The notes below the pieces were generated by a model, which saw only the letters and a program-made list of their open reading frames with translations, was not told the DNA's origin and made no database searches. The position numbers were made by a program, and so were the translations under genes. A stretch of DNA of 64,000 bases, taken from the NCBI GenBank assembly GCA_045598865.1, contig JAZRVA010000058.1, positions 15,300-79,299 of the forward strand, given 5' to 3'. Below are positions 3,866 to 22,522 of the stretch, in pieces. Each line of letters begins with the position of its first letter. Position 1 is the stretch's first letter. The stretch is from Clostridia bacterium. Its GTDB lineage: Bacteria > Bacillota > Clostridia > Christensenellales > UBA1242.

Positions 3866-4185
3866 ATGATACTTTCTTTTGCTCGGACAAGAAAGCGTTG
3901 CCAAAGAGCCCGCCACGTCGTGGCACAAGCGTTTGGTTGCAAGGCAAATAAAATTTGCCACAGGCAACACTTATGCTTGACCACTCCTTTATCCCACAAC
4001 TCACGGTGGCTCGTTGTGGGAGCCCTTAAAGGCGATTTCCCCCGGAGCCCCTTAAAACGCTTTCTGATAGGTTGTAAAAAATTTGTAGAGTTTGTGTTTA
4101 ATGTGAACAAAAAAATTAGTATTTTGATTTCTGCATTACATTTAGGGGAAAGTGGTGTGCAAAATTTTGTGGCAAAAAAGGGATT
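3866..4185 (+). repeat. Degenerate copy (R0) of the hairpin-repeat element family
   Basis: Same component order as the element at 22255-22522. It has the ctttctt/aagaaag hairpin (3872-3895), then aaagag plus a small hairpin gccac/gtggc (3912-3924). An 8-bp hairpin cccacaac/gttgtggg follows (3993-4020), then the box ttcccccggagccccttaaaacgctttctgataggttg (4037-4073). It ends with a decayed R-type end cattacatttaggggaaagtggtgtgc..ggcaaaaaagggatt (4133-4185). Confidence 0.5.
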
Positions 4186-4534
4186 AAAAGAACACAATTG
4201 TTATGCCGGAATTTAGGTTTTTTAGGTCTGAATCTACCAACAAATTTGGGTAAATTTTTGAGTAATTTTTAAAGGTTTTTCCGCTTCTTGCCAACGCTTC
4301 GTTGGCAAAAAAATCGGCAATTTTTCCTTGCTTTTTTAGGCGTTGCAGTAGTGTGGGCAGGGCCTTTTTTATTTGCCCGCCAACCCCACTTGAACCATAG
4401 CCGTGAATAATTTTTAGGCCGTCAATTTTGGGTTTTATTAGTTGCAAAATTTCAATTTCGGTTTCCACTTCCGCCAGGGCTTGGTCCACTGTGAAAGAAC
4501 CATTTTCCACATTGATTGTTTTAAAATTTTCCAT
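4184..4534 (-). CDS. Smr-like (MutS2 C-terminal type) small nuclease-domain protein, 116 aa
   Basis: MENFKTINVENGSFTVDQALAEVE...LKIIHGYGSSGVGGQIKKAL...NSGITIVFF resembles the Smr core (IIHGxG, C-terminal G.T.V). The canonical DLHG is replaced by VENG. The ORF-track extension to 4834 is only translated repeat DNA, so the start is placed at the ATG at 4534. Confidence 0.55.
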   Translation of the reverse strand: MENFKTINVENGSFTVDQALAEVETEIEILQLIKPKIDGLKIIHGYGSSGVGGQIKKALPTLLQRLKKQGKIADFFANEALARSGKTFKNYSKIYPNLLVDSDLKNLNSGITIVFF

Positions 4535-4540
4535 ATAAAA

Positions 4541-4569
4541 ATTATAAAATAAACGCCAAAAATACACAA
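4541..4569 (-). promoter_or_regulatory. Candidate sigma-70 promoter of the Smr-like gene (possibly giving a leaderless mRNA)
   Basis: The minus strand reads TTGTGT - 17 nt - TATAAT - 6 nt - ATG. There is no SD between the -10 and the start codon. Confidence 0.4.
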
Positions 4570-4585
4570 ATATTTTTTGTGTTTT

Positions 4586-4977
4586 AACCCTTTGGTGCGT
4601 TTGCACCAACCTTCCCCTAAAGGGGACACTGAGAGTGAAAGTTGGCAAATTGCAACCGTGCCTAAAGGGGACACTGAGAGTGAAAGTTGGCAAATTGCAA
4701 CCATGCCTAAAGGGGACACGAAGAGTGAAAGTTGGCAAATTGCAACCGTGCCTAAAGGGGACACTGAGAGTGAAAGTTGGCAAATTGCAACCGTGCCTAA
4801 AGGGGACACAGGAAGGAGAGTTGTGTTTTTCCACCGAGTCCCTAAAACGCTTTCTGAGAGGTCGTGAAAAATTAAAAAGTGTACCGTTTGGGAAAGAGAC
4901 GAAAACTTAGCCAACAATCAATCTGTGTCCCATTTAGGGGAAGGTGGTGGGCAATTTTTATTGCACACCAAAGGGTT
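4586..4977 (+). mobile_element. MITE-like non-coding element R1 bounded by inverted hairpin ends
   Basis: Left end (4586-4629) is aaccctttggtgcgtttgcaccaaccttcccctaaaggggacac. Right end (4925-4977) is its imperfect reverse complement, gtgtcccatttaggggaaggtggtgggcaatttttattgcacaccaaagggtt. The interior holds a 45-bp array plus the conserved box ttccaccgagtccctaaaacgctttctgagaggtcg (4829-4863). TTTGTGTT occurs on both flanks (4576-4583 and 4978-4985). Confidence 0.55.
4616..4810 (+). repeat. 45-bp tandem repeat, 4.3 copies
   Basis: The unit is cctaaaggggacactgagagtgaaagttggcaaattgcaaccgtg, starting at 4616, 4661, 4706 and 4751, with a partial unit at 4796. Units differ by 0-2 substitutions. 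The period is a multiple of 3 and at least four reading frames stay open. Confidence 0.95.
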
Positions 4978-5195
4978 TTTGTGTTGTAACAAAAAGCTGA
5001 TTTCGCCCAATTGGACGGCGGGTGCCAAAATTGCCACAATCCGCTAAAAAAGCGGGAAGTATAAAATTTTTAAAACTATTTTTGTTTTTTTGTAAAAATG
5101 TTTGGTTTTATGCACAAACTATTGTAAAATATTACTTGTAATATTATATATTGCGGGCGTGTATGCACATGCGCGAGCTTAAAATGCGCAAATGT

Positions 5196-5371
5196 AACCC
5201 TTTGGTGCTGTTGCACCAACCTTCCCCTAAAGGGGACACTGAGAGTGAAAGTTGGCAAATTGCAACCGTGCCTAAAGGGGACACAGAGAGTGAAAGTTGG
5301 CAAATTGCAACCGTGCCTAAAGGGGACGCAGAGAAATAGTGATGAAAGCACAATTCCCCTAAATGGGACAC
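5196..5371 (+). repeat. Element copy R2 in the leader region of giant gene 1
   Basis: L-type end at 5196-5239 differs from R1 only in the hairpin loop. The same 45-bp unit occurs 2.3 times (5226-5330). An R-type core in flipped orientation, cccctaaatgggacac, follows at 5356-5371. There is no complete right end. Confidence 0.7.
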
Positions 5372-5412
5372 AAAATGTTTTTTTGCAAAGAGAGTTTTTA
5401 TAAAAAACTAAT

Positions 5413-5443
5413 GCACTTTCTTTTGCCAGTTATAAGAAAGTGC
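5413..5443 (+). promoter_or_regulatory. Conserved 10-bp-stem hairpin (HP1) in the leader of giant gene 1
   Basis: gcactttctt-ttgccagttat-aagaaagtgc. Homologous hairpins lie at 22255-22285 and 3872-3895. There is no T-run after it, so it is not a classical terminator. Confidence 0.5.
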
Positions 5444-5509
5444 AAGATGTTTTTAAAAACAACTTTTTGAAAAAAGGTGTTAGAAAAATTTTGTTTGAGG
5501 TAAAGTTTT

Positions 5510-8500
5510 ATGAAAACAAACATTTTTAAGAAAATTTTAAAAGTCGTTGCGGGAATGGCAGTTGCGTTGGCCATGGTTTTATCCAACCCTTTGGTGCTGT
5601 TGCACCAACTTTCCCCTGCAGGGGACACGGAAAATGGTGGGGGGAGTTTGTATGCAAGTGCAAGTTCTGCCTCAAACCCAAATGTTGGCGCTGTTGCAGG
5701 CGTAAGTTCTTTGCAGGACTTGCTTGTTAAAACAACATTAACAAACAATGGATATAAAAATGATGGCACTGCAATAACAGATGATTTAACGACACAGGAC
5801 TATGTTTGGCTGCCAAAAAGCGGCTCTGCCAGCGATTTAACGGCTATTCAGGGCATGGTTACAAACAGCGATGCTGGCAGAATGACCACAGCCACCGAGT
5901 GGGCCCTTGCTAACAACAGCTACGTATATGATTGCTGCACAACTAGCTCACCATATTACTGGCTGCGCTCTGCTCCTTCTGCTTCTTATGTGCACCGTGT
6001 GTACTACTTTGGCAGTGTGGTTGACACCTATGTGTACTCCTCCTACGTTGCGGCGCGTCCCGCTTTGCAACTCAATCTTGCATCTATAATCTCCGCACGA
6101 AGTGCGTTGGGCATTGAAATTGATGCAACTGCTGGCACAATAATCATTCCGCAAGTTAAATACCCTCAAACGCTGGTTGACACAACAAGCGCTTTGGCAA
6201 CAACGTTAAACACCCTGGGCAACACAGACAGTTCCACTAGGGCAGTTAGTCCTTCTGGTGGAATGCTTGCCACAGGGGTATCCTATCCTGGCTACGACAG
6301 CAGTTACAAGGAATACTATTATGATGGAAACTACTATGTTCACGCTAAAATTAACAGATACTCGGGCTCGGATTCGTTGCCTTTTGCACAAGAGCAAGAC
6401 ACTGCCACTGAAGACCCAAGCACTCACAAGGTTACTTGGACTACTGCCGATGATTTGGCCAATGGCAAGTATGCATGGTTTAAGGTGGAGCCAATTGTAT
6501 GGCATATTTCTAACTTGAGTGAAATTTTAAGTGATATAAATAACAACAACACAAGCACCACAAACACAATGTATGTTATATCAAACCAAGCAATTGTGGA
6601 GATGGGACAATTTTATATCAACGGCAGTGATGCTTACCGCAGCATGTGGCAGAACTCCCGCTTAAGGGCATACTTAAACGGCTACAATTTGTTAGAAGAA
6701 AACGCAACAAACGGCAATGCAACTTACAATGCTGCGCTTGTTACAAACAACAATGCTAATTTTGACTTTTCTGGGCCAGGAAAGGGCTTTTTGCAAACTG
6801 TTTGGCATGAGGCTGTGCCTGCTAAGGTTATTTTTGACCCAGTGGGGGGAGATAGCTTTGTTGCATTACAATCAGCCTTGAATGTGGCAAGTGTTCAAAA
6901 TGTTAGGTTTGCATCAACTTTAACTGTTGATAATGCTTTTGTTTCTGCAAATGGGTCAACAATAGATTTTAAGGGCAAAACTCTTTCTGGGGTTGGTATA
7001 AACAACTGCTTAATTAACATAACAACTTCTTCTGATGTAACAATTGCAAATGCTAATTTTGCCGATTGCCCTTATGGCGCGATAGTGTCAACCGGCACTG
7101 GAAAATTAAATGTTCAAAATTGCACATTTACAAATTGCTATGTGAATTATGAACAAACGGTTACTTCAACTACAGTGGTGGAGAACAAGGCGCAAGGTGG
7201 GGCTATTAAAGTTACGGGAGATTTGAAGGCCACAAACTGCAATTTTGTGGGGTGCTATGCAAAGGCAAGCGTTACTGCAACTGGCAGTGGGGTGGTTGCA
7301 ACTGTTAGCAACCTTGCCCAAGGCGGCGCAATTTATGCCAAACCTGCCTCTGGCACAGCCAATGTGGAACTTACAAACTGCACATTTGACGGGTGTTATG
7401 CACAGTATTCTCAAACTTTAAACGATAGCGCCACGGCTAGCAAAGATTCTGTGGATTGTGGTGGAGCTGTGTTTGTTGAAGGTGAGTCAACGATTACAGA
7501 CTGCACTTTTACAGGTTGTTATGCTGCCGATGGTGGAGCAATTAATGCAACAACCACAAATGTTAAAGCATGCACCTTTACGGGGTGTTATGCCAGCTCT
7601 TCCGCTGGAGCAATTAGGGCAACCACACTTGAAACGCACAACTCAACCTTTGAGGGCTGCTATTCCCAGGCTGGTGGAGGGGCTGTGAGGTGCACAAACG
7701 CAAGTGTTTATGATACATCTTTTTATTCATGTCGCTCAAATAGTAGTGGTGGAGCAATACTTGCAATTACACTAAATCTTAACAATAGTTCATTCAACAA
7801 TTGTTGTGTTACTAGTGGCAACTCAGGTGCAGTTTATTGCGGAAGTTTGTATGGCGACGGCAATAAATTTACTAATTGTTATGCACAAAGTTATGGTGGA
7901 GCTATAAATTGTTCTGATGGTATACTTGAAATTAGTAATACATTGTTTGACAATTGCTACTCACAACTGTCTCAATATCAAGGCGGGGCAATTTCCACCA
8001 CAAATGGCTCTTACAAAAAGATTGTTAATTGCCAGTTTTACAACTGCTATTTAAACAATGCAAAAAATACAACAGACACTGGTTATGGCGGTGCTGTGTA
8101 TGTGGCAAACAATAGTTATACTTCACCAGGGGCATGTAGTGCCGATGTTAGCATTGTGGGGTGCGTGTTTGGCAAGTGGGTGGATGCTAATGGTGATGGT
8201 GTGGTGGATGCAAATGAAAATGAAATTTTTGGCAACAAGGCTAAATATGGCGGCGCGTGCTACATAAACACCACGGGCAATGTTACCATTGAGGATAGCA
8301 CATTTGTGGGCAACGACTTTAATTACAGCGGGGAGGTTTTTTTTAACGTGAACTTTATGGGTGCGGCACTTTATGTGCCTAGCGGAAATGGCAAAAACTT
8401 GATGCTTTCTAACTGCGTGTTTGAGCACAATGGATATGGGGTTATCTCTGGCTCAGATAAAGGCATTGGGACTTTGTTTGCAAGTGGTTATAAAACATAT

Positions 8501-11500
8501 ATAACAAACTGCGTGTTTGATGACTGCCGTGGAGGAGTAGCGTCTGCGCTTAAAATAAATGGAAGCGGAAATTTTGTTATGAGTAACACTATAATTAAAG
8601 ATACAACAACTGGTTATGGTGGGCTTGTGGATGTTGGAGATTTTAACTATCTTAGTGTGAGCAATTGTTCTTTTAGTGGTTATAAAAATGGGAACCATAG
8701 GAATGACGCTAAAACTCTTTACAGATTTGCAGGCAATACAGAAATTGAATTTAAAAGCAATATCATTTTTAACCATGATTACACAAGTACTACTGCGAGT
8801 GGCACTTGCGTTTCGCTTGACTCGGTAACTGGTACGGTTAAGAAGATTGAAGGCAACACCTTTGAACAAAACAAAAGCTTTACAAATGTGCTTAACGTTT
8901 TCAACAGCTATAGAGTGCAGAGCTACTTGAAAGATAACAAATTTGTGAACAACACAAACAAAGATGGTGGTGGGAACATTGTTAATGTTAACGTATACAC
9001 GTATAACAGTGTCACGTTGGATGGGGGTGACAGATTGGTGGTGGAAGATTGCGTGTTTGAGGGGAATAGTGGCAGGGCGCTTTATGCCGGGGCGCACATA
9101 AACACAATTAAGAACTGCACGTTTAGCAACAACACGCTTGCTAGCGGCAACGGCGCGGCAATTAATTTGCCTAAGCCAACGGCAGGTTCAACTGGGTTGA
9201 CAGACCCACCTTATCTCAAAACCAGCGAGAAAAACCAAATTTTGAATTGCAAGTTTAGTGGAAATTTGACGTCAGCTAATGATTCGCTGGGTGGCGCTAT
9301 TTATTCTATTGAGAATAGGGTTGACATTGTTTCTTGCCAGTTTAGTGCAAATCAGGCAAAATCCGCAGGAGGTGCTATTAGAGCTGATATAACAAATTCT
9401 GACAATAGAGAACACTGTTTGATAAGTATTTCAAATTGTCAATTCTATGCAAATGTTGCTTCTAACGGGGATGGTGGTGCTGTTTCATCTACTAACAAAT
9501 CTGAGTGTGATGGATGTTTGTTTGAGAAAAATTCCGCAAGAAAAGGCGGCGCCGTTTCTATGAACTTTGCACCGACGTTTAAAAATTGTAATTTTTATGA
9601 TAACTATGCTACAACTGAAGGTGGGGCAATTTTCAGCGGAAGCAGTGTTTCTCTTACCGATTGTTTGATTTCCAACAATTATGCTGGTACAAATGGTGGT
9701 GGTGCAAAAGGGAACGCATTTTCAATTAAGGGTGGAACACAAATTATTAACAATTATTGCGGTTCCTCTGGTTTTGGTGCGGGTGTTTATGTTAGTTATA
9801 TTGGCTTTACATTAGTTCCTAGTGCTAAGGCCATTGTTATTAATAACAATTTTGGCAATGCTGTATGGGATGACACAAACAAAAAAGTTGAGAGTTATGA
9901 CGAAAACAAACCATCAAATGTTTACAAAGTTGACCCTTATATGATTGGATTTGACTCGTCATATTTTAAATATGGCAAACCTAACATTGATGTTGGATTT
10001 TCGTTTAACAACCTTGACATCCAAAATCATATTGGTGATGGCAAGGATTATTGTTTTGTTGTACATGAAACCGAATGGGCTTATTCTGATATTTTAGAGT
10101 GTTTGCACCCAGATGTAACAACAGTTGAAATTACTAGTGGTGATAATGCCGGAATTTATGATTTGGTGCCATACTATGATAGCGCTAAATACATGTTAAA
10201 AATTATCAAGCAAGGCAGTGACAACATTGAATATGTTGCAAGCGGGTTTTATGGGCCTTATGACGGCTGGTGGCACACGGTGGATGTTAAGGTGGTTAGC
10301 CCAGATAGTGGTTACACAATAAAATATAGCAATGCCGAGAATGGCACATTTAGTGCAGATTTGGTGGAAAACCAAACTGTGTTTAAAGATGTTACGGTCG
10401 AAAGAACGGTGTGGTTCACCATTGAGGCTAGTGGCAAAACCACGGTTAAGGACAGTGCAAAAGTTACTATTATTGCAATGCCAACTCAAATTATTTTAAG
10501 TTCTGCCAAACTTACTGCCGATTTTGGCACGAGTTTTGCCGTTAACACATCACTTAACGGCTATTTAACTGGGGCTTTTGTTGTGGATGCAAATGGCAAC
10601 AATGTTGCGGGGGATTTCTATTTTAGCACAGCGCAAACCATGAGCATGCAAAGTGGTGCTATTAAGGCATTTGGTGGCAACTTGACGTTTAAACCAAGCA
10701 ACTCTAACTTTGCTGCACCTACTGCTGTGGCGGCAAGTGGAATTGCTGGGGCTGTGGTTTACACAGATTTGTGGTATTATGACGGCTATTTTTACAACAC
10801 ACTTGCCAGGGCTGCAACTAAGAGTGGAGAATCTATTACAAGTGACACAACTTATAGGGTAAGCAAGGCAGACAATGGTGCAACACTTACGGCCATGCTT
10901 AAATTTTTGCCTGCAAATGCAACGGTTTACTTCTTGACTGCTTATAACGTGGCGGCAAACGAAACTTTGGAAATTGGCACAAACAATTTTGTGTTTACCA
11001 AAATCACTGATACTAATATAGTTGGTATTATTGGTAATACTAATAATATATTTAGTATACAAAGCGGCAAAACCCTTACCATAACCACCGACAAATTTGG
11101 GCGCTTAACCATTTGCGGTGTGGGAACAGCTTCAAACAATCAGGCACTTATTGCAAACGCGGGAACACTTACTATTGATGGAAATGTGGTGATTAGTGCA
11201 AACAACACCACCGGTAACGCATCTTTGAAAGGTGCGGGAATTAGCGGGGGCACGGTGAATTTAACGGGTGTGACGCTTACTGGGCTTGTGGCGGCAGATT
11301 GCGCGGCAATTTATGCCAGCGGCAATTTAAGTTTGACAGACGTGGTTGTGAACAACTGCACAACAAACGCAAACAACAGCATTGTGTGCACAAATGGCAC
11401 GGCAACAATTAACTACTCAACAATTTCTGGCAACAGCGGCAACAACAGAAATGACGTTTTAATTAACGGCGGTGGTTCTGACGTGGTGCATGCAATAAAC

Positions 11501-14500
11501 GGCAGCAACATGGATAGTGTTTATTTTGCATCTAGTGCTGGCGGAACAATCAACCTAAGTGGAAATGTGCAAATTCCAAAAATGAGCTACTATTTTTATG
11601 AAAGTTCAACCTCTGGCTTTGCAGTTTACAATGTGGGGCTAACAGCCGCAAGCAGAATAAAACTAAATGCCACAAACTCCACTGTTGTGGGCACATATGC
11701 ATTGCGCACGGCGGTTTATAGCCTAGATGGCATTTATGGCAAAATTTTTAGCCTTCTCAACTCTGGCACGGGCATTGGCGGGCTTGGCATTTCTGGCGGA
11801 TTTATGGTGGTGCTTGCCACAAGTTCATCTTCCACAGAAGATGAAGAAGACGAAGAAGATGAATACCTTCGTGTTTTACCAACTGGCTTGCAAGAGGTGG
11901 AGTATATTGAACGTAGTTCTGGCACCATTACTTTAAACGCTAATTTTAACCCACAAACTGACATTTTTGAATTGGTCTATTCCTCCAATGAATTTTTTTG
12001 GTGGCCATATGGGATGTGGACATCAAGTAATTGTTCAGTATTTACTATTAATGGTGCAAGTCAATACTATAGCAATTTTAATGTTTCTTCAAAAACAAGA
12101 CTAACATTTGGCAAATCTCGTATTAGACTTGAAAACCTGTCGTCTGGTGCTCAAACTGGCACGTCAAATTCAGCATGGGGGACACAAACTTCTTCAAGTT
12201 TTGAATTTCTTTCGGGGAATTATTATGGATTTAAGGTTTGGTCAAATGAAATTTTAGTTCATAATCTTGTTCCATGTGTTGTTAAAGCAGATCAAACATT
12301 TACAGATTCAACAGATACAACATATAACGAGAATAAAGTTGGCTTTTATGATGTATTAACTGGAATATTTTATTGTGGTTCTGGTTTTTCTGCTAGCGCA
12401 ACCACTGGTTTCTATGAAGAAATTTACTGGGATCCAGCAAACACTAGCACAAATGCAGATGATGCAAACAATGGTTCGCAGTATGCGCCAGTGCTCAGTT
12501 TAGACAAAGCAGTAAAGTTGGCAAAACAATATGGCGCGGTTGTAAAGCAACTTAGCACTTTAACCGTTAGCACCGAAACCACCCTAGACTTTAAAAACGT
12601 GGTGCTTGGCAGAGCCAGCGGGTTTACTGGGGACCATTTGAGTGTTTCCACCACCGATGCGGTAACCGTTAACAACGTGCGTGTGGATGGGAATTATACA
12701 ACAGTGGGGGATCTGTTTGCATATAAAATTTCCACAGTGGCAGGTGCAAATGTAACACTTAATAACTTTAAAATGGACACTTTGACTTATGGTGGAATTA
12801 AATTTGCGGGAGATTCAACAACCAAAACAGCTGTGCTTAATATTAACAATGCAAAGATTAACAGCAGGTGTAATTCTATGTCAGACAACGATGAAAAAAG
12901 GTGTATAAATATTAATAACACAGAAACTGTAACCTTAACAAACTGCGACCTTAGCGGCAGTGCACAAATTTATTGCAGTGATGGCACATTGAATATTAAC
13001 AACTGCAACTTGCATGATAACTGTTTTGGCTCTGGCACGCAGGCCGTTCCTGGTGGGGCTGTAAGAGCCGCAACAGTTGTGGCTAAAAACTGCAAGTTTA
13101 TAAACAACAAAACAAGCAAGTCTGGTGGGGCGATTTATGCAAGTTCCGTAAATGCTACAAATTGCACATTTAGTGATGGAACAGTTGGTTATAATGTACA
13201 TGGTGCTGGCATTTGTTCATCTGGCAATGTAGTGGTGGAAAATTGCAGGTTTGAAAACTTGGCTTGCTCAACTTCGGGCGATACGCATGGGGGCGCAATT
13301 TCTGCTAATGGAACTGTTACGGCAAAGAGTTGTCAGTTTATTAAAACTGCGGCATACCAAGGCGGTGGTATTTTTGCCGGTGGTGACGTGTATTTAGAAA
13401 ATTGCGACTTTGATAAAATATTTAAATTTTACAGTGCAACTAATCACTGGGGTGCTGCATTTGTTCATGCTGGAAGTAACAAAATAACTGCAATTAATTG
13501 CACGTTTACAGATTCTTGGGCTGGGAAAAGTATTTTTCAATGTGGTGCAATGGTTATGGATAACTGTATTATTTCAGGTTGCTCAAATGGCACATCGTAT
13601 GGTAGTTGCTCGATACAATGTTCTTCAATTGAAGCCACAAATTGTACATTTATAGACAACAATTGTACTATAAATGAAAAAGGTATAATTTACTGCACTG
13701 GAAATGTGACACTAACAAATTGTGATATTTCTAGAAACACAACAAGAGACACGATAATTTTTGCAGACAACGCCTCTGCAAATGTGGTTATTAAAGACAC
13801 AAAGATTAATAACAACACTGTTACAGGACAAGATATTGGGCAAAATGGCTCTACAAACTGGGTGCTTAACTTTGCTGGTGGTGTGTATGTGGCAGGAACG
13901 GCCAACATAACAAACAGCGAAATTTGCAACAACTCTGCAACCAGAAAAATGACGGTTAACAACAATAGTGGTGTGGAAATAAACTGTGTTGGTGGGTTGT
14001 TTGTTAGGGGCGAAACAACATTAAGTAACGTAAAAATTAACAATAATGCATTTTCAAGCACAAACATGAATGTGCACGATAATACAACAAAAACCGAGAT
14101 AAACACTATTGGTGGTCTGCTTGTTAAGAACACACTAACTTTATCTAATGTGGAAATTAACAACAACACTGTTAATGTAACCGAAACATTAACAAATAAT
14201 GCGTCACAATCTTACACTGAGGTTGGCGGTTTACGTTCCACTAGCACGGCAACATTAACAAATGTTGAAATTTGCCACAACACATCCACAAACGGCATTG
14301 GTGGACTTTCCACCGGCGGTGGCACCTGGCTTAATGTAACCGTTGGCTATAACACGGGGTATACATATGGGGTTGGAATAACTTCTGCAACGCAAATAAC
14401 CAACTCTAACTTCTGTTACAACACTGTTACCAGAAACACAAGTGAATCAATGTCTGGATTGCATTTGAATGCAGGTAGCACATTTACAAACTGCAACTTT

Positions 14501-17500
14501 TTTGGTAATAAAAACGGAAACTGTTGTGGTGTTCATTATTCATGGAGTGGAAATGGTACTTTTTATAATTGCTCTTTCTATGATAATTATACAACAAGCG
14601 GTCATAACTATGGTGGTTGTATTATTGCAACAAACGGAGATTTGTTGAAGATGTATAATTGCAAGATATACAACAATATAAGCACAAATATGAATACTAT
14701 TGGAGTGGCCAACCAAAGTGCTTATTTCTACAATACTGAGTTTTATAATAATTCAACTAGTGGAAGTTATGTGGTTGGTAACAATTATAACTGTTCAACT
14801 GTGTGGTTTGAGAATTGTAGTTTGCATAATAATAAAGGTAGAATTATAAATTCTTATACAAATGCAAATAATCTTCTTACAATGATAAATACATCCGTGT
14901 TTGCAAATAATGATACAAATGAAAATAATTATTCCATTTCACTTTCAAAAGCCAATATAGACAATTGTCAATTTTACAATAATACAAAAAACGGTTCAAA
15001 TCCATTTATTAGAGGTGAAACAGGGGATTTTTCTGTTACAAATTGCAGATTTTACAACAATAGAGCAACCCTTATTAATAGGGCTGGTGGGGTGATAACC
15101 AATTTTTCTAACAATTACATTTCTGGCAACACTGGCGAATATATAGTTAGTGTTTCTGGAACTGTAACCAATTTTGAAAACAATGTGTTTGCAAACAACA
15201 AATTAACCAGCAACAGTTATGGTGTTGTTTACATGCCAACTGGTTCTACTGTAAAGGGTTGTGTTTTCTATGGCAACACAAACGTTTCTACGGGTGCAGA
15301 CAGCCCAATTATTTTGGTTGGCAGTGGCAGAACTGTTACGTTTGACAGTTGCTTGTTCTACGAAAACGCAAGTTTGGGCACTAGTGCCACTGCAAACAAG
15401 GTGTTTAAGTTTGTGGGCGAGGCAAACTTTAACGCTTGCCAATTTGCAAATAACTACTACTATGATTCCAACCTTTCAACCACCAAAAAATTGGCAATTG
15501 CTAGTGTTTATGTGGACGGCGGCGTGGCAACTATTGACGGCTGCGTGTTCACCCTAAACCCAAGCACTGATTTGCCTTTTGGTAATTATGGCGTGTTCTA
15601 CGTGAACAGTGGCGAACTTAACATATATGGCAAGTTTGAAAAACTTGCGCTTGGTGAAGCTAATTTGGTGGTTGTTGATGGTGGCGTGGCAAACGTTTAT
15701 GCCCAAATTTTAAGCAACACGGTAAGTGTGGCAATAATTAAGCAAAGCGGTGGCGAACTTAACTTAAAGGGCACTATAATTAGCGGAAACACTGCCACCG
15801 CGGGCAGTATTATTGAGCAATTGGGCGGAGATTTGAACATACAATCTGCCACAATTTCAAATAACACTTCTAGCCAAGGCAGTGTGATTGACGCAATTGG
15901 TGGAGATTTTAGCGCAACGGGCAGCACAATTGCAAACAACACGGCAAGTGCGGGAGCTATTTTAAAAACTGGTGCGGGTGTGGCCAAAATTTCTGCCTGC
16001 ACAATAAGCGGCAACACCACGCAAAGTGGCACAATTTATACGGGTGGCATGCTTAATTTAAAACAAAACACAATTGCAAACAACACAGGCGTAAACGGTG
16101 GCGCAATATGTGTGGGCAACGGCGGTGTGTGCGTGTTGGAAAGTGGCACACTTGCCTCCAACACTGCAACAAGCGGCGGGGCAATATATGTTGAAAACGG
16201 CGGGTTGTTCACCTTGCTTGCCGGTGTTGTGGGAGAAACAAACACAGCCTCTGGCACAAATACCTCCGAGGGCGGTGGCGCAATTTATGTGGCTGAGGGC
16301 GGCAAGGCGGTTATAAACGGCGGCGAAGTTGTGGGTAACACTGCCAAGTATGGTGCAGGAATTTATAACAACGGCACCCTTGTTGTTAATGACGGAAAAT
16401 TTTGGAAAAACAAGATATCAGTAGCTAGTGGCATGGGTGGTGGAATTTATAACTCTGGCTTGGCAACCATAAATTATGTGCAACTTTCTGCCAACAATTA
16501 TATAAGCACCAGTTCTCAAACAATTTATGGTCTTGCCCTTGCAAATAGTGGAAAACTTAACATGCTTGGTGGAATTGTTGAAAATAATTCATTTGATGCT
16601 TGTTCAGGTGCTGTTTATTGCAATGAAGGCACAGCAAACATTAGTGGTGTAACATTTGATAACAATGCAAATTACTTTGGTAGTGCAATTAATGTAAAAG
16701 CAACTGCAACTGCGAAAATTGCAAACTGCACATTTAATTTGCCAACTTCATATCGTCACCCAAGTGGTGGCAATGGTAGAGGTGCTGGATTATACTTGGA
16801 AGGCAACTTTGAAGTTGAAAACTGCCATTTCTCTGGCACCGGAACAAGCAACACAAAATATAATGGTGCTGTTTACATAATCAACACCGCTAGTGGCAAA
16901 ATGACGGACTGCACGTTTGAGGATATATTCTTTAATGGCTGCTCTGCTTTTGCAGGCACTGTGGGCGCTGGCAAAACCGTGGAAATTGTGGATTGCACAA
17001 TTTCGGGGTGCAGAAAAGACGGCACAGACAGCAGTTCAAATGTGTTACAAGCAGACGGCGAGGTTATTATTGATAATTTGCATTATGTTAATAACTATGG
17101 AACGAACTATGCTGGCTTTAATTTAAGAGGGTCTGGCAGTGTTGTTATTCGCAACAGCTTGTTTGAGGGAAATTACACTACCGCAACAAATGACAATGTT
17201 GAGTTTGTATGCGCACTTGCTTTGGGTGGCACGGCAACAAAATTGGTTGACAACTGCGTGTTTAAAAACAACAATAACTCAAGCCGTTCGGTTTCTACTT
17301 TGTATATTTCAAATACTGCACAGGATGTTACAATAAAAGATTGCACATTTGAAAACAACACCTGTTATAGTGTCATTTATACAAAAACAGCAAGTGGCAC
17401 TGCAGGTAGTTTAAAATTTGTTGGCAATAACACAATTGAAAATAATAATGTTAAAAGAAAAGCAATAGATTTCGTAAATGAAAGCACAAGTGGTTTTGGC

Positions 17501-20500
17501 ATTGAACTTGGTTTTGGTGGAAAATTGTATATTTATGACAACAAAAACGCTGGTGGTGCACAGGTTAACTTTGGTGGGTTTGATAATTTGATTAACAACG
17601 GCACTTACAATGCCCGTGTTTTAATTGGAGGCCTTGCAAATGGCAGTAAAATTGGGCTAACAATTGACGATAATGCGAAAGAAGACTTATTTGTGGGCAC
17701 AAACCCAATTTCTTCCTCCGACTTTGCATGCTTTGTAAGTGATAGCGCAGATTATGTGATATATCTAGACAGCAAAAACAACAAAATAAAATATTCCACA
17801 ATCGCCTCAGCAACTGTTGTGGCAAGTGGTGAGGTTGTGTTTGCCGATGGCTACTATCACGGCTTAACAAACAGCAACTTCCAGGTTTATGATTCTGGCA
17901 CATTGCTTGACCAAACTGACTTTGTGGTAACATACAGCACACAAGAAGATGGAATTTATACGTTAGTAAGCCCACAATATGCTTGGGTTGCCCAGAATAC
18001 CGTGTATTACAGAGTGTATAAAACTGCGGATTATGAGGCAGACCCAGATTCCGCCCCATATGCAAGCGGCAGCACAAAAGTGGTTGTGGCGCAAAGATAT
18101 TTGTCGGCCTTAGTGTTGCCAAAAGCGCGCGCAGACGTGGGCGCAACACTTGCCACTGTCCTAATTTTTGGTGGCGAAGTGGTGGATAACTTTGGCTCCC
18201 CAGTTGCAGGCACTTGGGCGTTTGCAGATGGCACGGCAATAGCCACAAATGGCGGAAAGTTTGATGTAACCTTTACCCCAAGTGTGGCGGGTGTTTACGC
18301 AAACGAGGGTGGCATTTTGGGCGCAATATCTGTGGAATATAAATTTGATTTGCTTAGATATAAAGTGGATGAAGATGACTCCTCCAAAACCGCTTTCTAC
18401 TCTGGTGCAACAAAAACAAACCTAGAAACATTACAACAGGCAATGCCACTTGTGGCAAATGGCGGCAGAATTGTGTTTGACACAAATTACAAGTTTGTTT
18501 CATCCGAAAGTGTAACTACCTCCGGCACGGTTTATATCTGCAAGGGTGTAGATTTAAGAGGCAATATGTTTGTGGTCTCCGATGAAATGGAAAACTTGGC
18601 AGTAACCTTCTCTGGCAACATTGTGTTTGATGGCGCGTGGGTGGAAGGGATTAATTTAAATAAAGAATTAATATTACCAAAAACTTTCCAGCAAGTTGAA
18701 TATTTGGAAGGCACAGGTACTCAATATATTGAAAACATATGGGATATAGGTGACCACACAATTGAATTTGACATAATGCCTATTGATATGAGTGGTGGAT
18801 TTAGCAACTGGTTATTTGGTTTATATGATACGTCTGGAATAGGGTTAGATCCGTGGACTTATGGTATAACAATAAGTAATTCTACATTAACTCAAGTCTA
18901 TGCTGGAACAGTAACTCCAACTAGAGCAGCAGAAGGTGTAAGAGAAAAATATACATTTGTAACCAGAGCAGGAGCTTATTCTACTGAAAAATTAGGTTTA
19001 TTCTTTGAAACTGGATATTACGATAGAATTTTTAAAGGTAGAGTTTATTCATTTAAAGTTAAAAGAACAAGTGACGATGAATTGATACGAGATTTAATTC
19101 CTTGCTATCGTAAATCAGATAATGTAATAGGTATGTATGACATTATTAATGATGTATTTTACACTAATTCGGGAATTGGAACATTTACAAAAGGGCCAAA
19201 TGTTGGCTCTCACAATTGGGGTGTGGCGTATGATGACCGCACACAAGAAGTGCTTGATGCCGGCTTACTACCTGTTGATTATATAGAAAGTAATGGCACA
19301 CAATATATTGACACGGGTTATGTGCCTAAGAGTGATACTATTGTTGAAATAAGTTTTGAGAAAACAAGTAACAGAACACAGTATGATCAAATATTTGGGC
19401 GATTTGATGATACAAACACTAAATTTTATTTAGAATTTTATGGCGGGCACATGTATCAGCAAATTGGGAATGGTAGCTATACTTATTCTAATGCTCAACT
19501 TAATACCAGATATGATGTTACCATTTCTACAAAAAAATTTACCGTTAATGGAACAGAAAAAACGGGAAACCTAACCTTTACTCAAAACAGTTCCACCTTG
19601 CATTTGTTTGGAAGAAATGGCACCAACACCAATAACACTCAATACAACGCTGCAATGAAACTTTATTATTTTAGAGTGTATGAAGGCACCACACTTGTTA
19701 AAGACCTTGCTCCGGCTTACAACCCAAGCACTGGCAAGGCAGGGCTTTATGACTATGTTTCCAAAGCGTTTATGACAAGTGCCAACTCTGCAGACCTATC
19801 ATATGGCTCTGTTACGCTAGCAAATTTCGCTGGCGCTACTACTACTACTACTAGCTCTTATTTAGCCATAAACGGAAACAACAATTATATAGATACTGGC
19901 ATTAAATTTAACGACACCTCTAAAATTGAAATAACCTTTAGTGGCACAACCGGCGGCCAGGGCAACGGCATGGTGTTAACTGGAAACACCGGCACTAGCA
20001 GCAGTGATCATAGCGGTTATATCAATGCAAGTGGTTGGGGCTATAGTGACTTTAATTCTAACGGCACAAGAACTGGTGAGAATATTGGCAGTTTTGCCCA
20101 AGTTTTTGATGGTACTAAAAAAACCATTACTTTTAGTGGTTATAGGCATAGCAACAATTCAGCAAAAATCTGCACTGGTTATTGGGTTGATAGTTATTAT
20201 GGCAGAGAAATGTATTGGTATAACATGAAAATTTGGAACACATCTGGCGATTTAATCAGAAACTATTATCCTACAGTATCAGGTGGGCAGGGTGGCTTCT
20301 GTGACTTAATAACCGGCGAGATAAGACTTTGCACAGGAACGGCAGATGTGGCAAATTCCTATATTGTTCCAGAACATACTTATAGTAGAATTAATCTTAA
20401 CGAAGGATACAATGGTTCCGGCTTATTTAGAGTTAAGGAGGGTAGCACGCTTAACTTAGAAGGTGGTGTGAGGTTTGAAAATTGGAATAGAACAGACGGC

Positions 20501-21163: not shown

Positions 21164-21169
21164 AAATTT

Positions 21170-21328
21170 AAGTGTCCCATCAAGGGGGTTGCTATATGAT
21201 TTATTAAGTGTCCCCTCAAGGGAAAGGGGGTATATAAGTTAAAAGTGTCCCCTCAAGGGGAAGGGGGTATATAAGTTAAAAGTGTCCCCTCAAGGGGAAG
21301 GTGGTAGGCTTTTGCCTACCAAAGGGTT
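21170..21328 (+). repeat. Tandem array of the R-type core (about 36-37-bp period, three units) ending in a complete R-type end
   Basis: The unit aagtgtcccctcaaggggaagggggtatataagttaa starts at 21170 (diverged), 21206 and 21243. The complete end gtgtcccctcaaggggaaggtggtaggcttttgcctaccaaagggtt follows at 21282-21328. The array begins 7 nt after the giant-gene stop codon. Confidence 0.85.
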
Positions 21329-21704: not shown

Positions 21705-21962
21705 AACCCTTTGGTGCTTTGCACCAGCCTTCCCCTAAAGGGGACACTGAGAGTGAAAGTTGGCAAATTACAACCATGCCTAAAGGGGACACGGAAAAAA
21801 AGTAAACTCAATTTTTCCAGTTAGAATATATAAACATGTGTGTGTAATTTTTTCAGTTAGAATACGAGGAAAGTTGTCCCACCTCTAAGGAAAATACTAA
21901 AACTTGTATTAATTTGTGTCCCCTCAAGGGGAAGGTGGTAGGCTTTTGCCTACCAAAGGGTT
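21705..21962 (+). mobile_element. MITE-like element copy B bounded by inverted hairpin ends
   Basis: L-type end at 21705-21747, 1.3 copies of the 45-bp unit (21734-21792), and an internal direct repeat cagttagaata (two copies). The R-type end at 21916-21962 is identical to 21282-21328. Confidence 0.6.
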
Positions 21963-21986
21963 AAAACTCGCTCATAAAACCAATAA

Positions 21987-22016
21987 AACCCGTGGTGCGA
22001 CCCACGGGTTTTTTCT
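21987..22016 (+). terminator. Rho-independent terminator closing the giant gene 1 / DUF559 unit
   Basis: 9-bp stem aacccgtgg / ccacgggtt, 6-nt loop, followed by a T-run (22009-22014). Confidence 0.8.
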
Positions 22017-22254
22017 ATTTTTATTACCAAACAAAAAACACTAAACAAAATTGTTACATGTGGCTAAAATAGCAACTTGCACAAACTTTTAACTTTTTAA
22101 AAACTTTTGGGTTTTTGTGGCAAAAAATTGCGTTTTTTGTTTGGTGAAATTGCCTTTATATAATATAATTATTCTTGTATAATTATACCCACTATGCTCA
22201 TTATAACTTTGAGGGTTAAAGTTCTTTTGCAAAAGACGTTTCAAGAAAAGCATT

Positions 22255-22285
22255 GCCCTTTCTTGTAACTGGCAAAAGAAAGGGC
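22255..22285 (+). promoter_or_regulatory. HP1 hairpin copy upstream of giant gene 2, with its loop inverted
   Basis: gccctttctt-gtaactggcaa-aagaaagggc. The loop is the reverse complement of the loop at 5423-5433 (10 of 11 nt). One stem pair is changed from A-T to C-G. Confidence 0.5.
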
Positions 22286-22293
22286 GCAAAGAA

Positions 22294-22522
22294 AACCCTT
22301 TGGTGCTGTGCACCAACCTTCCCCTAAAGGGGACACAACAAGTGTTATGTTGCCATAAAGGGGACACGGCAAGAGTGTTTGGCAAGTGCAAACATACCCA
22401 AAGGGGATGCGGAAAAAAGAAATTGCGATTCCCAAGAGACCCCTAAAACGCTTTCTAAGAGGTTAAGAAAACTAGAAAAGTGTCCCATTTAGGGGAAGGT
22501 GGTGCGAAGGCACCAAAGGGTT
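22294..22522 (+). mobile_element. TIR-bounded element R4 in the leader of giant gene 2 (MITE-like; an invertible segment cannot be excluded)
   Basis: Left end (22294-22336) is aaccctttggtgctgtgcaccaaccttcccctaaaggggacac. Right end (22480-22522) gtgtcccatttaggggaaggtggtgcgaaggcaccaaagggtt is its reverse complement apart from the loop, one indel and one mismatch. The interior has diverged aaaggggacac units and the box attcccaagagacccctaaaacgctttctaagaggtt (22429-22464). Confidence 0.6.

Follow-up and report, generated by a model that had tools for sequence, protein, structure and literature searches.

A module of about 44 nt, which recurs in two clusters within a 64,000-nt stretch of DNA from a Clostridia bacterium (NCBI GenBank assembly GCA_045598865.1, contig JAZRVA010000058.1; hereafter the window), may well be the building block of a family of DNA palindromes resembling the repetitive extragenic palindromes (REPs) and bacterial interspersed mosaic elements (BIMEs), with a nuclease of the DUF559 family in the role of the REP-associated tyrosine transposase (RAYT). 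The small DNA palindromes of this family, found in Clostridia of the rumen and gut, are previously undescribed. By analogy, the pattern found here, namely many repeats, few genes, a gene between inverted copies and a repeat type matching the protein clade, is the hallmark of REP and RAYT. Literature searches, which included literal hairpin sequences and peptide translations, found no published description of the module sequence and none of a partnership between DUF559 and repeats. An original prediction, made from the window alone, had described the modules as a structured hairpin-repeat family restricted to the borders of two giant genes. This restriction did not hold; the constant companion of the modules is the DUF559 gene and not the giant genes.

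Nine full modules of 43-53 nt each were identified in the window by sequence reading, repeat finders and a covariance-model search (E values 1e-9 to 6e-11), five on the plus strand (L-type) and four on the minus strand (R-type). Their positions are given in Table 1, and copies are named below by type and start position. Truncated cores and tandem arrays accompany the full modules in both clusters. The 14-nt core CCTAAAGGGGACAC has 20 matches with at most two mismatches in the window, against 0.15 expected, and a 24-mer of the module has 7 matches, against 0.00 expected. The five L-type starts of the original prediction were all present by the covariance model and the repeat finders, and so were four of its five R-type copies, the fifth (R4133) being badly degenerate and missed by the model even at E<=1. 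As for the bare cores that it listed, those at 21172, 21208 and 21245 proved to be a 37-nt array of R modules without hairpin 1, whereas the one at 5356 is not of R-type, the core at 5354-5371 being an L core. It had also seen no copy elsewhere in the window, and neither BLAST of the two clusters against the rest of the window nor the covariance-model search found a module outside them.

The modules in the window follow the formula AACCCTTTGG-T[GC-loop-GC]A-CCAACCTTCCCC-loop-GGGGACAC, and the consensus of the family runs in the order AACCYTTTGG, hairpin 1, linker (A/AA/G)CCTT, hairpin 2, ACAC. Hairpin 1 consists of a conserved base (TTGGT/ACCAA) and a perfectly paired distal stem of 4-21 bp, the sequence of which is free to vary; hairpin 2 has a 4-bp YCCC/GGGR stem. 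The modules occur singly, in head-to-tail arrays and as inverted pairs. The L copies precede 45-nt tandem arrays, the units of which are degenerate L modules, and an L module, an array, a conserved box and an R module together form long composites at 4586-4977 and 22294-22522 and a shorter one at 21705-21962. These composite elements are 230-390 nt in length and end in terminal inverted repeats of about 44 nt. The insertions are the main reason why the intergenic regions of the two clusters rank as the largest in the window.

Pairing of helix 1 was analysed on a MAFFT alignment, not fitted to structure, of 26 copies from 9 contigs. The results showed that helix 1 was 95.8% paired, compared with 70% after column shuffling and 29-43% after sliding of the partner, and that changes on both sides were present at 11 of the 14 aligned pairs, across 68 cells. 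None of 500 shuffles reached the observed score, and a model-fitted alignment of 48 distinct copies agreed with this result. The paired changes of hairpin 1 that had been noticed earlier in the window are real; they comprise GGTGC/GCACC, GGTAGGC/GCCTACC and GGTGTGCAAT/ATTGCCCACC, the last with one mismatch. Outside the window, hairpin 1 ranges from GGTAC/GTACC up to perfect stems of 21 bp, and hairpin 2 alternates between CCCC/GGGG, TCCC/GGGA and CTCC/GGAG among relatives. When whole stems were counted (n = 348), 341 pairs were Watson-Crick, 6 were G-T and 1 was of another kind. The data support a real repeat family under selected secondary structure, as had been proposed for the modules with the choice between DNA and RNA left open.

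On that choice, DNA folding gave two hairpins for single modules (z = -3.0 to -3.7) and a four-way junction for units of an R and an L module (z = -9 to -13). In one locus outside the window (L005; such loci are designated by L and a three-digit number), units lie in both orientations behind genes of one strand, and the orthologous R-L sites of L009 and L011 have opposite orientations. With G-T pairs nearly absent and neither strand preferred, the modules look more like a DNA palindrome than an RNA. Rfam searches at gathering and at permissive thresholds covered the window, L005, L011 and L013; apart from two tRNAs at gathering thresholds, they returned nothing credible and no module match, in line with the earlier failure to assign the modules to a known family.

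Copies in other contigs were sought by scanning species-representative genomes and JGI metagenomes with exact patterns, which were strict (a 2-nt linker and a short hairpin) and undercount the family. Seven loci were obtained (L001-L007), and all of those with an organism name are metagenome-assembled genomes of rumen 'Clostridia bacterium'. The outside copies keep AACCYTTTGGT, ACC(N1-2)CCTT, the small C/G hairpin and ACAC. Their usual form is an R-L pair with a 12-16-nt AT-rich spacer resembling TATAAT (L005, L006, L007, L009 and L011), and each pair comprises a C-type module (AACCCTTTGG and CCCC/GGGG) together with a T-type module (AACCTTTTGG and TCCC/GGGA). Such pairs lie downstream of pckA, hpt or a cotF-like operon and can face either way, and modules are also found after DUF559, so that giant-gene borders are not their only sites. 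Many copies lie 10-30 nt past stop codons, ahead of terminators, and some are degenerate (4133 and 21172-21245 in the window, L002 2113-2157).

Three further features were observed around these copies. In the five loci with R-L pairs named above, the base at position 5 of AACC[Y]TTTGG and the closing pair of hairpin 2 show perfect covariation, C going with C-G and T with T-A, and the two positions are far apart with no pairing predicted between them. In the gene-less R-L pairs of L005, L007 and L009, the short spacers keep an ATTATAA/TATAAT-like core, as if the pairs were deletion derivatives of a gene-bearing unit. A repeat of the form ...GCTCGCAATGACAATGTG.ACCC.GAGC.AAC.GAGTGAGTCGTGAGG... 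adjoins type-A modules (the name used hereafter for the modules described above) in unrelated contigs (L002 1630-1685 and 1990-2045; L005 13135-13160).

The DUF559 gene of the window lies exactly between R21282 and L21705, and the nearest solved structure to its product is 3HRL, an 'endonuclease-like protein' (E=2e-14). The putative catalytic residues of the product are the D/E/D of VDFYC...IEIDG. Close homologues (66-71% identity, motif KIYRQKLIG) were recovered with their loci from four further lineages (L009-L012 and L019-L025), and type-A modules stand beside the DUF559 gene in all five lineages of this clade, the window included. One or two R-L pairs lie 23-26 nt past the DUF559 stop codon in L009/L010 and L011/L012; the order in L019-L023 is R, 63 nt with a consensus promoter, the DUF559 gene, L and L; and in L024/L025 the gene stands between R-L-L and L-L. 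Throughout these loci of 15-20 kb, every model match is at most about 600 nt from the DUF559 gene. The consensus promoter of the L019 gene, TTGACT-17-TATAAT, was observed within the R-L spacer (5147-5210). For a more distant clade (motif RQKVIG; L013, L014 and L084), the loci L013 and L014 (57-62% identity) contained no type-A modules, and a sister unit, here called type B, flanks the DUF559 gene instead. Gene and repeat are adjacent in 8 of 8 lineages examined, and the repeat type is clade-specific.

The genomic context of DUF559 differs by lineage: the gene is located after thioredoxin, inside an aro operon (L013), after dinB (L014) or after large surface-protein genes, and the large genes upstream of it in L019 and L024 are not homologous to giant gene 1 of the window. 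In 41 of 120 homologues, the N- or C-terminal peptides are read-through translations of repeat motifs, for example PSPQGEG, PLKGK, MRWMRC, MDEV and ...KPSP (the stop codon TGA being the hairpin loop itself). The DUF559 gene is absent from L001-L007, the loci found through the repeat pattern alone. Domain scans of the window proteins revealed no transposase or recombinase, and no transposase lies beside modules in the fetched loci. DUF559 relatives are rare in phages and plasmids, and pattern scans showed type-A modules to be essentially absent from viral contigs; an origin from phages or plasmids was therefore rejected.

The corresponding locus of a related strain was represented by two Logan contigs of one sample (L008 and L017), which overlap by 22 nt. 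Its Smr-like protein is 84% identical to that of the window, and its order is RadC, DegV, HU, Smr(+), promoter and giant gene; it is free of modules throughout, which also contradicts a fixed link to giant-gene borders. The window blocks 3866-4180, 4550-4971 and 5169-5483 are missing from this locus, as are, from L017, the 15 codons that a module contributes to the N-terminus of giant gene 1. The promoter-plus-Smr segment exactly between R4133 and L4586 is inverted with respect to the related strain: the minus-strand alignment pairs L017 73-439 with window 4549-4183, and the breakpoints are the inner ends of the two modules. The segment between R4925 and L5196 (4972-5168) is ancestral promoter DNA, 83% identical and in the same orientation in L017. 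Because the related strain has the same HU-Smr-giant-gene locus without modules, we concluded that modules are gained and lost between related strains.

Among the strains represented by L019-L023, the DUF559 gene and the adjacent modules are 100% identical. L019, L020 and L022, with identical DUF559 genes, nevertheless differ by a 175-nt module block, and one left flank is wholly different, starting inside the loop of an R module; L-L-spacer-R blocks were found in L020 and L022. These differences, together with those of L008 and L017, show that the modules are sites of rapid rearrangement. The Smr-like gene was considered as cargo or partner of the modules and rejected, since in L017 and L018, which have no modules or arrays, it resides next to HU and the giant gene (in L018 on the other side of HU).

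In the type-B unit, CCTTCCCC-TTGA-GGGGAAGG precedes a variable, perfectly paired hairpin and GGATGAGGTGT, after which comes the mirror half; the hairpins of this unit occur nowhere else in the L013 and L014 loci. The type-B core TCCCCTCAAGGGGAAG is identical to R21282 and R21916, both types share the layout of hairpin 2, variable hairpin 1 and inner box, and the type-A covariance model weakly recognises type-B modules. Because of the shared core and this weak recognition, types A and B are treated as one putative superfamily. The 97 loci from IMG/VR (L030-L126; 811 kb, selected by pattern) contained 215 type-B hairpins and one DUF559 gene (L084), which lies precisely in the gap between an R half and an L half. 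In these loci (L033, L062 and 95 others, on Clostridia-like contigs), very abundant GC-rich mosaic repeats were observed, with modules made up of a hairpin CTTCCCC-TTGA-GGGGAAG, a variable perfect hairpin and (G/T)GATGAGGTG, and a third type of the form CTCGCCCCTTGGGGAGAG...CTGAGAGGGGT. Their density reaches 5 exact matches of a 20-nt pattern (10 with a looser hairpin pattern) in 8.7 kb, and no published description of this mosaic repeat family was found.

Similar arrangements were met further afield. In E. coli K-12, the DUF559 gene ycjD (L026, NC_000913.3 1351190-1351830) ends inside a GC-rich CCCTC...GGGAGAGGG hairpin, an inverted copy of which (CCCTCTCCCCAGAGGGGCGAGGGG) lies 154 nt away, and a hairpin upstream of the gene, TCACCTCAT...ATGAGGTGA, contains ATGAGGTG, which is the inner box of the Clostridial type B. 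In 5426 E. coli genomes, a 61-nt piece adjacent to ycjD recurs as a dispersed repeat, the median being 16 places per genome; this piece is presumably BoxC. The DUF559 genes of Neisseria gonorrhoeae and Deinococcus have C-run/G-run hairpins within 100 nt, and none was found within 100 nt of a DUF559 gene on a Synechocystis plasmid. BoxC has been described as GC-rich imperfect palindromes of 56 bp in E. coli, with about 20-30 copies and unknown function (PMC2267715). Predicted targets of programmed inversion are enriched in the annotation 'DUF559 domain-containing protein', with an odds ratio of 14 (PMC9881135), an enrichment that fits genes flanked by inverted repeats. The position of ycjD beside a dispersed hairpin repeat hints at a wider generality. 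It is a tentative thought, and a rather doubtful one, that bacteria have a second class of interspersed palindromic repeats, independent of RAYT, with DUF559 (YcjD-like, Vsr-fold) nucleases as its dedicated partners; such a class would include the type-A modules, the type-B mosaic repeats and possibly the BoxC-like repeats of E. coli and the similar hairpins by DUF559 genes in Neisseria and Deinococcus.

The features of the two clusters are summarised in Table 1.

Table 1. Repeat modules, arrays and neighbouring genes in the two clusters of the window
Feature	Position	Strand	Evidence and remarks
Internal box (CCCTTAAAACGCTTTCTGATAGGT...) of the composite L-array-box-R element, conserved	4032..4083	+	Repeat finder; 4032-4073 matches 22425-22464 (BLAST)
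Degenerate R-type module	4133..4180	-	79% identical to 4922-4959; inner end abuts the Smr-like gene segment; missed by covariance model
Smr-like gene, 116 aa	4184..4534	-	Pfam Smr E=9e-4, below curated cut-off; bracketed by R4133 and L4586
L-type module, left end of composite 4586-4977	4586..4629	+	Model 57.3 bits; DNA fold two hairpins, z = -3.6
45-nt tandem array, 4.3 copies, degenerate L modules	4616..4809	+	TRF, 95% matches
Internal box of composite	4840..4873	+	88% identical to 4050-4083
R-type module, right end of composite 4586-4977	4925..4977	-	Model 54.1 bits; insertion boundary relative to the related strain at the AACCC end (4977); L017 homology resumes at 4972
L-type module inserted in 5' UTR of giant gene 1	5196..5239	+	Model 56 bits; 5169-5483 without L017 counterpart
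45-nt tandem array, 2.4 copies	5226..5334	+	TRF
Bare hairpin-2 core, end of 5196-5371 block	5354..5371	+	Repeat finder; core-pattern search
L-type module in frame in the 5217-aa ORF, codons 26-40, NPLVLLHQLSPAGDT	5585..5628	+	Model 51.7 bits; not in the orthologous L017 N-terminus
37-nt tandem array, 3.7 copies, R modules without hairpin 1	21170..21306	-	Starts 7 nt past the stop of giant gene 1; weak model matches at 21208 and 21245
R-type module, ends 4 nt before DUF559 start codon	21282..21328	-	Model 51.4 bits; 100% identical to 21916-21966
DUF559 (Vsr-fold, PD-(D/E)xK) endonuclease gene, 118 aa	21333..21689	+	Pfam PF04480 E=1e-27
L-type module, begins 15 nt past DUF559 stop; left end of composite 21705-21962	21705..21747	+	Model 56.4 bits
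Short 45-nt array, about 1.3 copies	21734..21792	+	95-98% identical to units of 4661-4814
R-type module	21916..21962	-	Model 51.4 bits
L-type module in 5' UTR of giant gene 2; left end of composite 22294-22522	22294..22336	+	Model 56.7 bits
Diverged array units	22350..22418	+	4749-4896 matches 22351-22498 at 73% (BLAST)
Internal box of composite	22440..22472	+	Sequence reading, BLAST
R-type module, 80 nt upstream of giant gene 2 start	22480..22522	-	Model 52.4 bits

The two giant genes are adjacent open reading frames (ORFs) at 5510-21163 (5217 aa) and 22602-50384 (9260 aa). Their products have similar signal peptides (MKTN.FKK.L), C-terminal membrane anchors, beta-helix-type GGAIY repeats and the recurring motif (Q/P)VEYIESTGTQYIDTG; a homologue of more than 5582 aa in L018 has Pfam Beta_helix and DUF6273. 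The in-frame copy L5585 comes directly after the signal peptide. The idea that the 45-nt arrays are coding cassettes for antigenic variation was rejected, as several frames are open merely because the unit has no stop codons, and no sign of alternative N-termini was seen. We take the link of the modules to the giant genes to be a local feature and their clustering to be a by-product: a DUF559 cassette lies between the two genes, and the copies would have spread mostly locally into tolerant non-coding DNA. Effects on giant-gene expression, through insertions in the 5' untranslated regions (UTRs) or the 15 extra codons, would be possible side effects and not the purpose of the modules. A second small hairpin repeat, (G)CACTTTCTT-11 nt-AAGAAAGTG(C), was observed at 3872-3896 (+), 5414-5447 (+) and 22253-22285 (-), with one copy about 65 nt upstream of the start of giant gene 1 and another just upstream of L22294. 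Its copies 5416-5445 and 22253-22282 are inverted relative to each other, with 93% identity, and their stems differ by a compensatory change (GCAC.../...GTGC and GCCC.../...GGGC).

How the modules might spread can be outlined as follows. Modules land in intergenic DNA, in 5' UTRs and, once in the window, in frame in a coding region, and one copy of the element carries the DUF559 gene of about 115 aa in its R-L spacer. From the arrangement of gene and repeats, we infer that the nuclease may recognise folded modules, either as single-stranded hairpins or as an extruded cruciform, and nick at the conserved module flanks; host recombination, repair and replication slippage might then copy, invert, delete and tandemly amplify the modules. 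Several points weigh against a REP/BIME-like system with DUF559 as the partner enzyme. The association of DUF559 with the modules rests on adjacency, and the R-side inner box may simply be a ribosome-binding site of the DUF559 gene (the AAGGG of R21282 may serve as such) or a regulatory hairpin. Nucleases of the PD-(D/E)xK type hydrolyse DNA without passing through a covalent intermediate, and the strands are not resealed; by itself, DUF559 therefore cannot be a transposase, and we know of no activity of this family. The public scans, with their deliberately strict patterns, yielded only seven loci. No convincing target-site duplication was found at the compared flanks; the sole candidate, AAATGT around 5196-5371, is not present at other copies. 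Finally, the hairpin-1 sequences differ entirely among the copies on the single contig L005, whereas REPIN populations are near-identical, which favours either old copies maintained by selection or a mechanism by which the palindrome is formed anew. Since copies on one contig differ wholly and yet show almost perfect Watson-Crick pairing, their sequences suggest that the distal palindrome of hairpin 1 may be regenerated by a copying process and not by slow drift.

An alternative is that the palindromic R-spacer-L unit is an element maintained by the host for independent reasons and that DUF559 acts on it as a free-standing homing endonuclease: the enzyme would cut the intact unit at the AT-rich spacer and be copied into it by repair, spreading itself only. 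Vsr-like homing endonucleases, for example I-Bth0305I, do exist, the gene lies precisely in the spacer of the unit in the window, L019 and L084, its genomic context differs in each lineage, and its product has weak similarity to the PADLOC HEase model (E=1.7e-4). However, intact units directly beside the gene in L009 and L011 remain unfilled, there is one gene copy per locus despite many potential targets, and the arrays, the solo modules, the ORF insertion and the gain relative to L017 would be left unexplained, so that we consider this explanation unlikely. We regard as less likely still that the modules work as structured RNA within transcripts, whether by stabilising or terminating them from the 3' UTR, by regulating the giant genes from the 5' UTR or in the form of small RNAs, with the adjacency to DUF559 then reflecting its regulation. 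The strong covariation, the many copies shortly past stop codons and ahead of terminators, the copies in the 5' UTRs of both giant genes, and the inner box by the DUF559 start, which resembles a Shine-Dalgarno sequence and has a partner resembling the complement, would all be compatible with a function in RNA. Yet G-U pairs account for only 6 of 348, the units stand in both orientations relative to flanking genes and are flipped at orthologous sites, their presence varies between close strains, head-to-tail arrays and an in-frame ORF copy occur, and Rfam gave no match.

The inversion of the R4133-L4586 segment relative to the related strain raises the question of phase variation, in which inverted L and R modules would be recombination sites switching the giant surface proteins. 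The segments to flip would be promoter and UTR regions (4925-5239, 21916-22336, 22294-22522) or even gene 1 as a whole (5585 to 21328). Inverted modules do bracket promoter-bearing segments upstream of both giant genes (R4925/L5196, R21916/L22294 and L22294/R22480), and the enrichment of DUF559 among targets predicted for programmed inversion (odds ratio 14, PMC9881135) is in keeping with this. But one fixed inversion between species can be obtained from any inverted repeat by homologous recombination, the promoter segment 4972-5168 has the ancestral orientation of the module-free relative, the R-L spacing in other genomes is only 12-16 nt with no surface gene involved, and no recombinase is encoded in the 64 kb; a phase-variation switch is therefore improbable in our estimation. 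Little probability is likewise assigned to the modules being inert debris of local duplication and slippage without a dedicated enzyme, which share variable, poorly constrained intergenic regions with DUF559. The tandem arrays, the indels of unequal-crossover type and the degenerate copies (4133, 21172-21245, L002 2113-2157) are what such debris would look like, but the flanks are conserved and the stems perfectly paired across genomes in which the DUF559 proteins are only 66-71% identical, and gene and repeat are adjacent in 8 of 8 lineages with a clade-specific repeat type.

Few parts of bacterial genomes are as poorly understood as small interspersed palindromes, and to our knowledge REP is the only such family with a known partner enzyme, RAYT. 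If DUF559 does stand in that role, a second partnership of gene and repeat would exist on a different nuclease fold, and such associations would have arisen more than once. DUF559, a very widespread domain that occurs in thousands of genomes (ycjD of E. coli among them), would gain a function, and repeat families that for 30 years have lacked an origin would gain one. DUF559 would also become approachable by experiment, with explicit hairpin sequences as candidate substrates. In two giant surface-protein genes, control regions and even coding sequence are remodelled by the modules, whose inverted repeats could flip or delete large segments; this bears on strain variation in rumen Clostridia and on breaks in metagenome assemblies.

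Compared with known systems, the repeats were rejected as a CRISPR array, since the 'spacers' are identical and the window has no cas genes, and as integron attC sites, since the module ends GGGTTAAAA / TTTAAACCC do not fit the RYYYAAC / GTTRRRY core sites and no integrase is encoded in the window. Arrays stand in front of the DUF559 gene and also, on the opposite strand, in front of the Smr-like gene; a type III toxin-antitoxin system (ToxIN-like) was nevertheless rejected, because the array units are degenerate modules, Smr is resident without arrays in L017 and L018, and PADLOC gave no toxin match. DNA invertons of the fimS and C. difficile cwpV type likewise have inverted repeats that bracket a promoter or UTR upstream of a surface gene, but the 64-kb window has no dedicated site-specific recombinase. 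With Vsr-like (EDxHD) homing endonucleases such as I-Bth0305I, and with 3HRL, DUF559 shares the nuclease fold family and the position of the gene inside a pseudo-palindromic site; unlike them, it is free-standing, without intron or intein, and its putative site is a 140-nt multi-copy structured repeat. Rickettsia palindromic elements resemble L5585 in lying in frame in a protein gene that stays unbroken, although only one of about 10 copies is coding here and size and sequence are unrelated. Miniature inverted-repeat transposable elements (Correia/NEMIS of Neisseria; RUP and BOX of pneumococcus) are similar in having composites with inverted termini, insertion polymorphism and insertion into UTRs. 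They differ in that, here, no convincing target-site duplication and no parental insertion sequence with a DDE transposase were found, the termini are structured hairpins and not plain inverted repeats, and there is no sequence similarity. BoxC of E. coli is also a small dispersed palindrome with a C-run/G-run hairpin, its sequence being unrelated beyond this C4/G4 theme.

The comparison with REP, BIME and REPIN and their RAYT in Enterobacteria and Pseudomonas is the closest, in spite of clear differences. The flanked gene here encodes a hydrolytic nuclease (DUF559, PF04480) and not a Y1 HUH transposase, no Y1_Tnp domain being present among the window proteins scanned; the modules have AACCYTTTGG and ACAC as their conserved flanks and no GTAG tetranucleotide; there are two hairpins per module, of which one is hypervariable; the hosts are Clostridia; and copies within one contig are far more diverged than in REPIN populations. 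Both systems have short extragenic imperfect palindromes that fold as stem-loops, with at least two module subtypes in alternating orientation and with characteristic spacers, occurring also singly and in arrays. Both form inverted doublets and mosaic clusters, here the R-L pairs of L005, L006, L007, L009 and L011, the blocks of L020 and L022, and the window clusters. REP elements number tens to hundreds per genome; about 10 module copies lie in the window, and the type-B loci gave 215 hairpins in 811 kb. Where a RAYT gene is lost, REPINs decay. RAYT genes lie between REP sequences, and in both systems the repeats are many and the genes few, the gene stands between inverted copies, and the type of repeat matches the clade of the protein.

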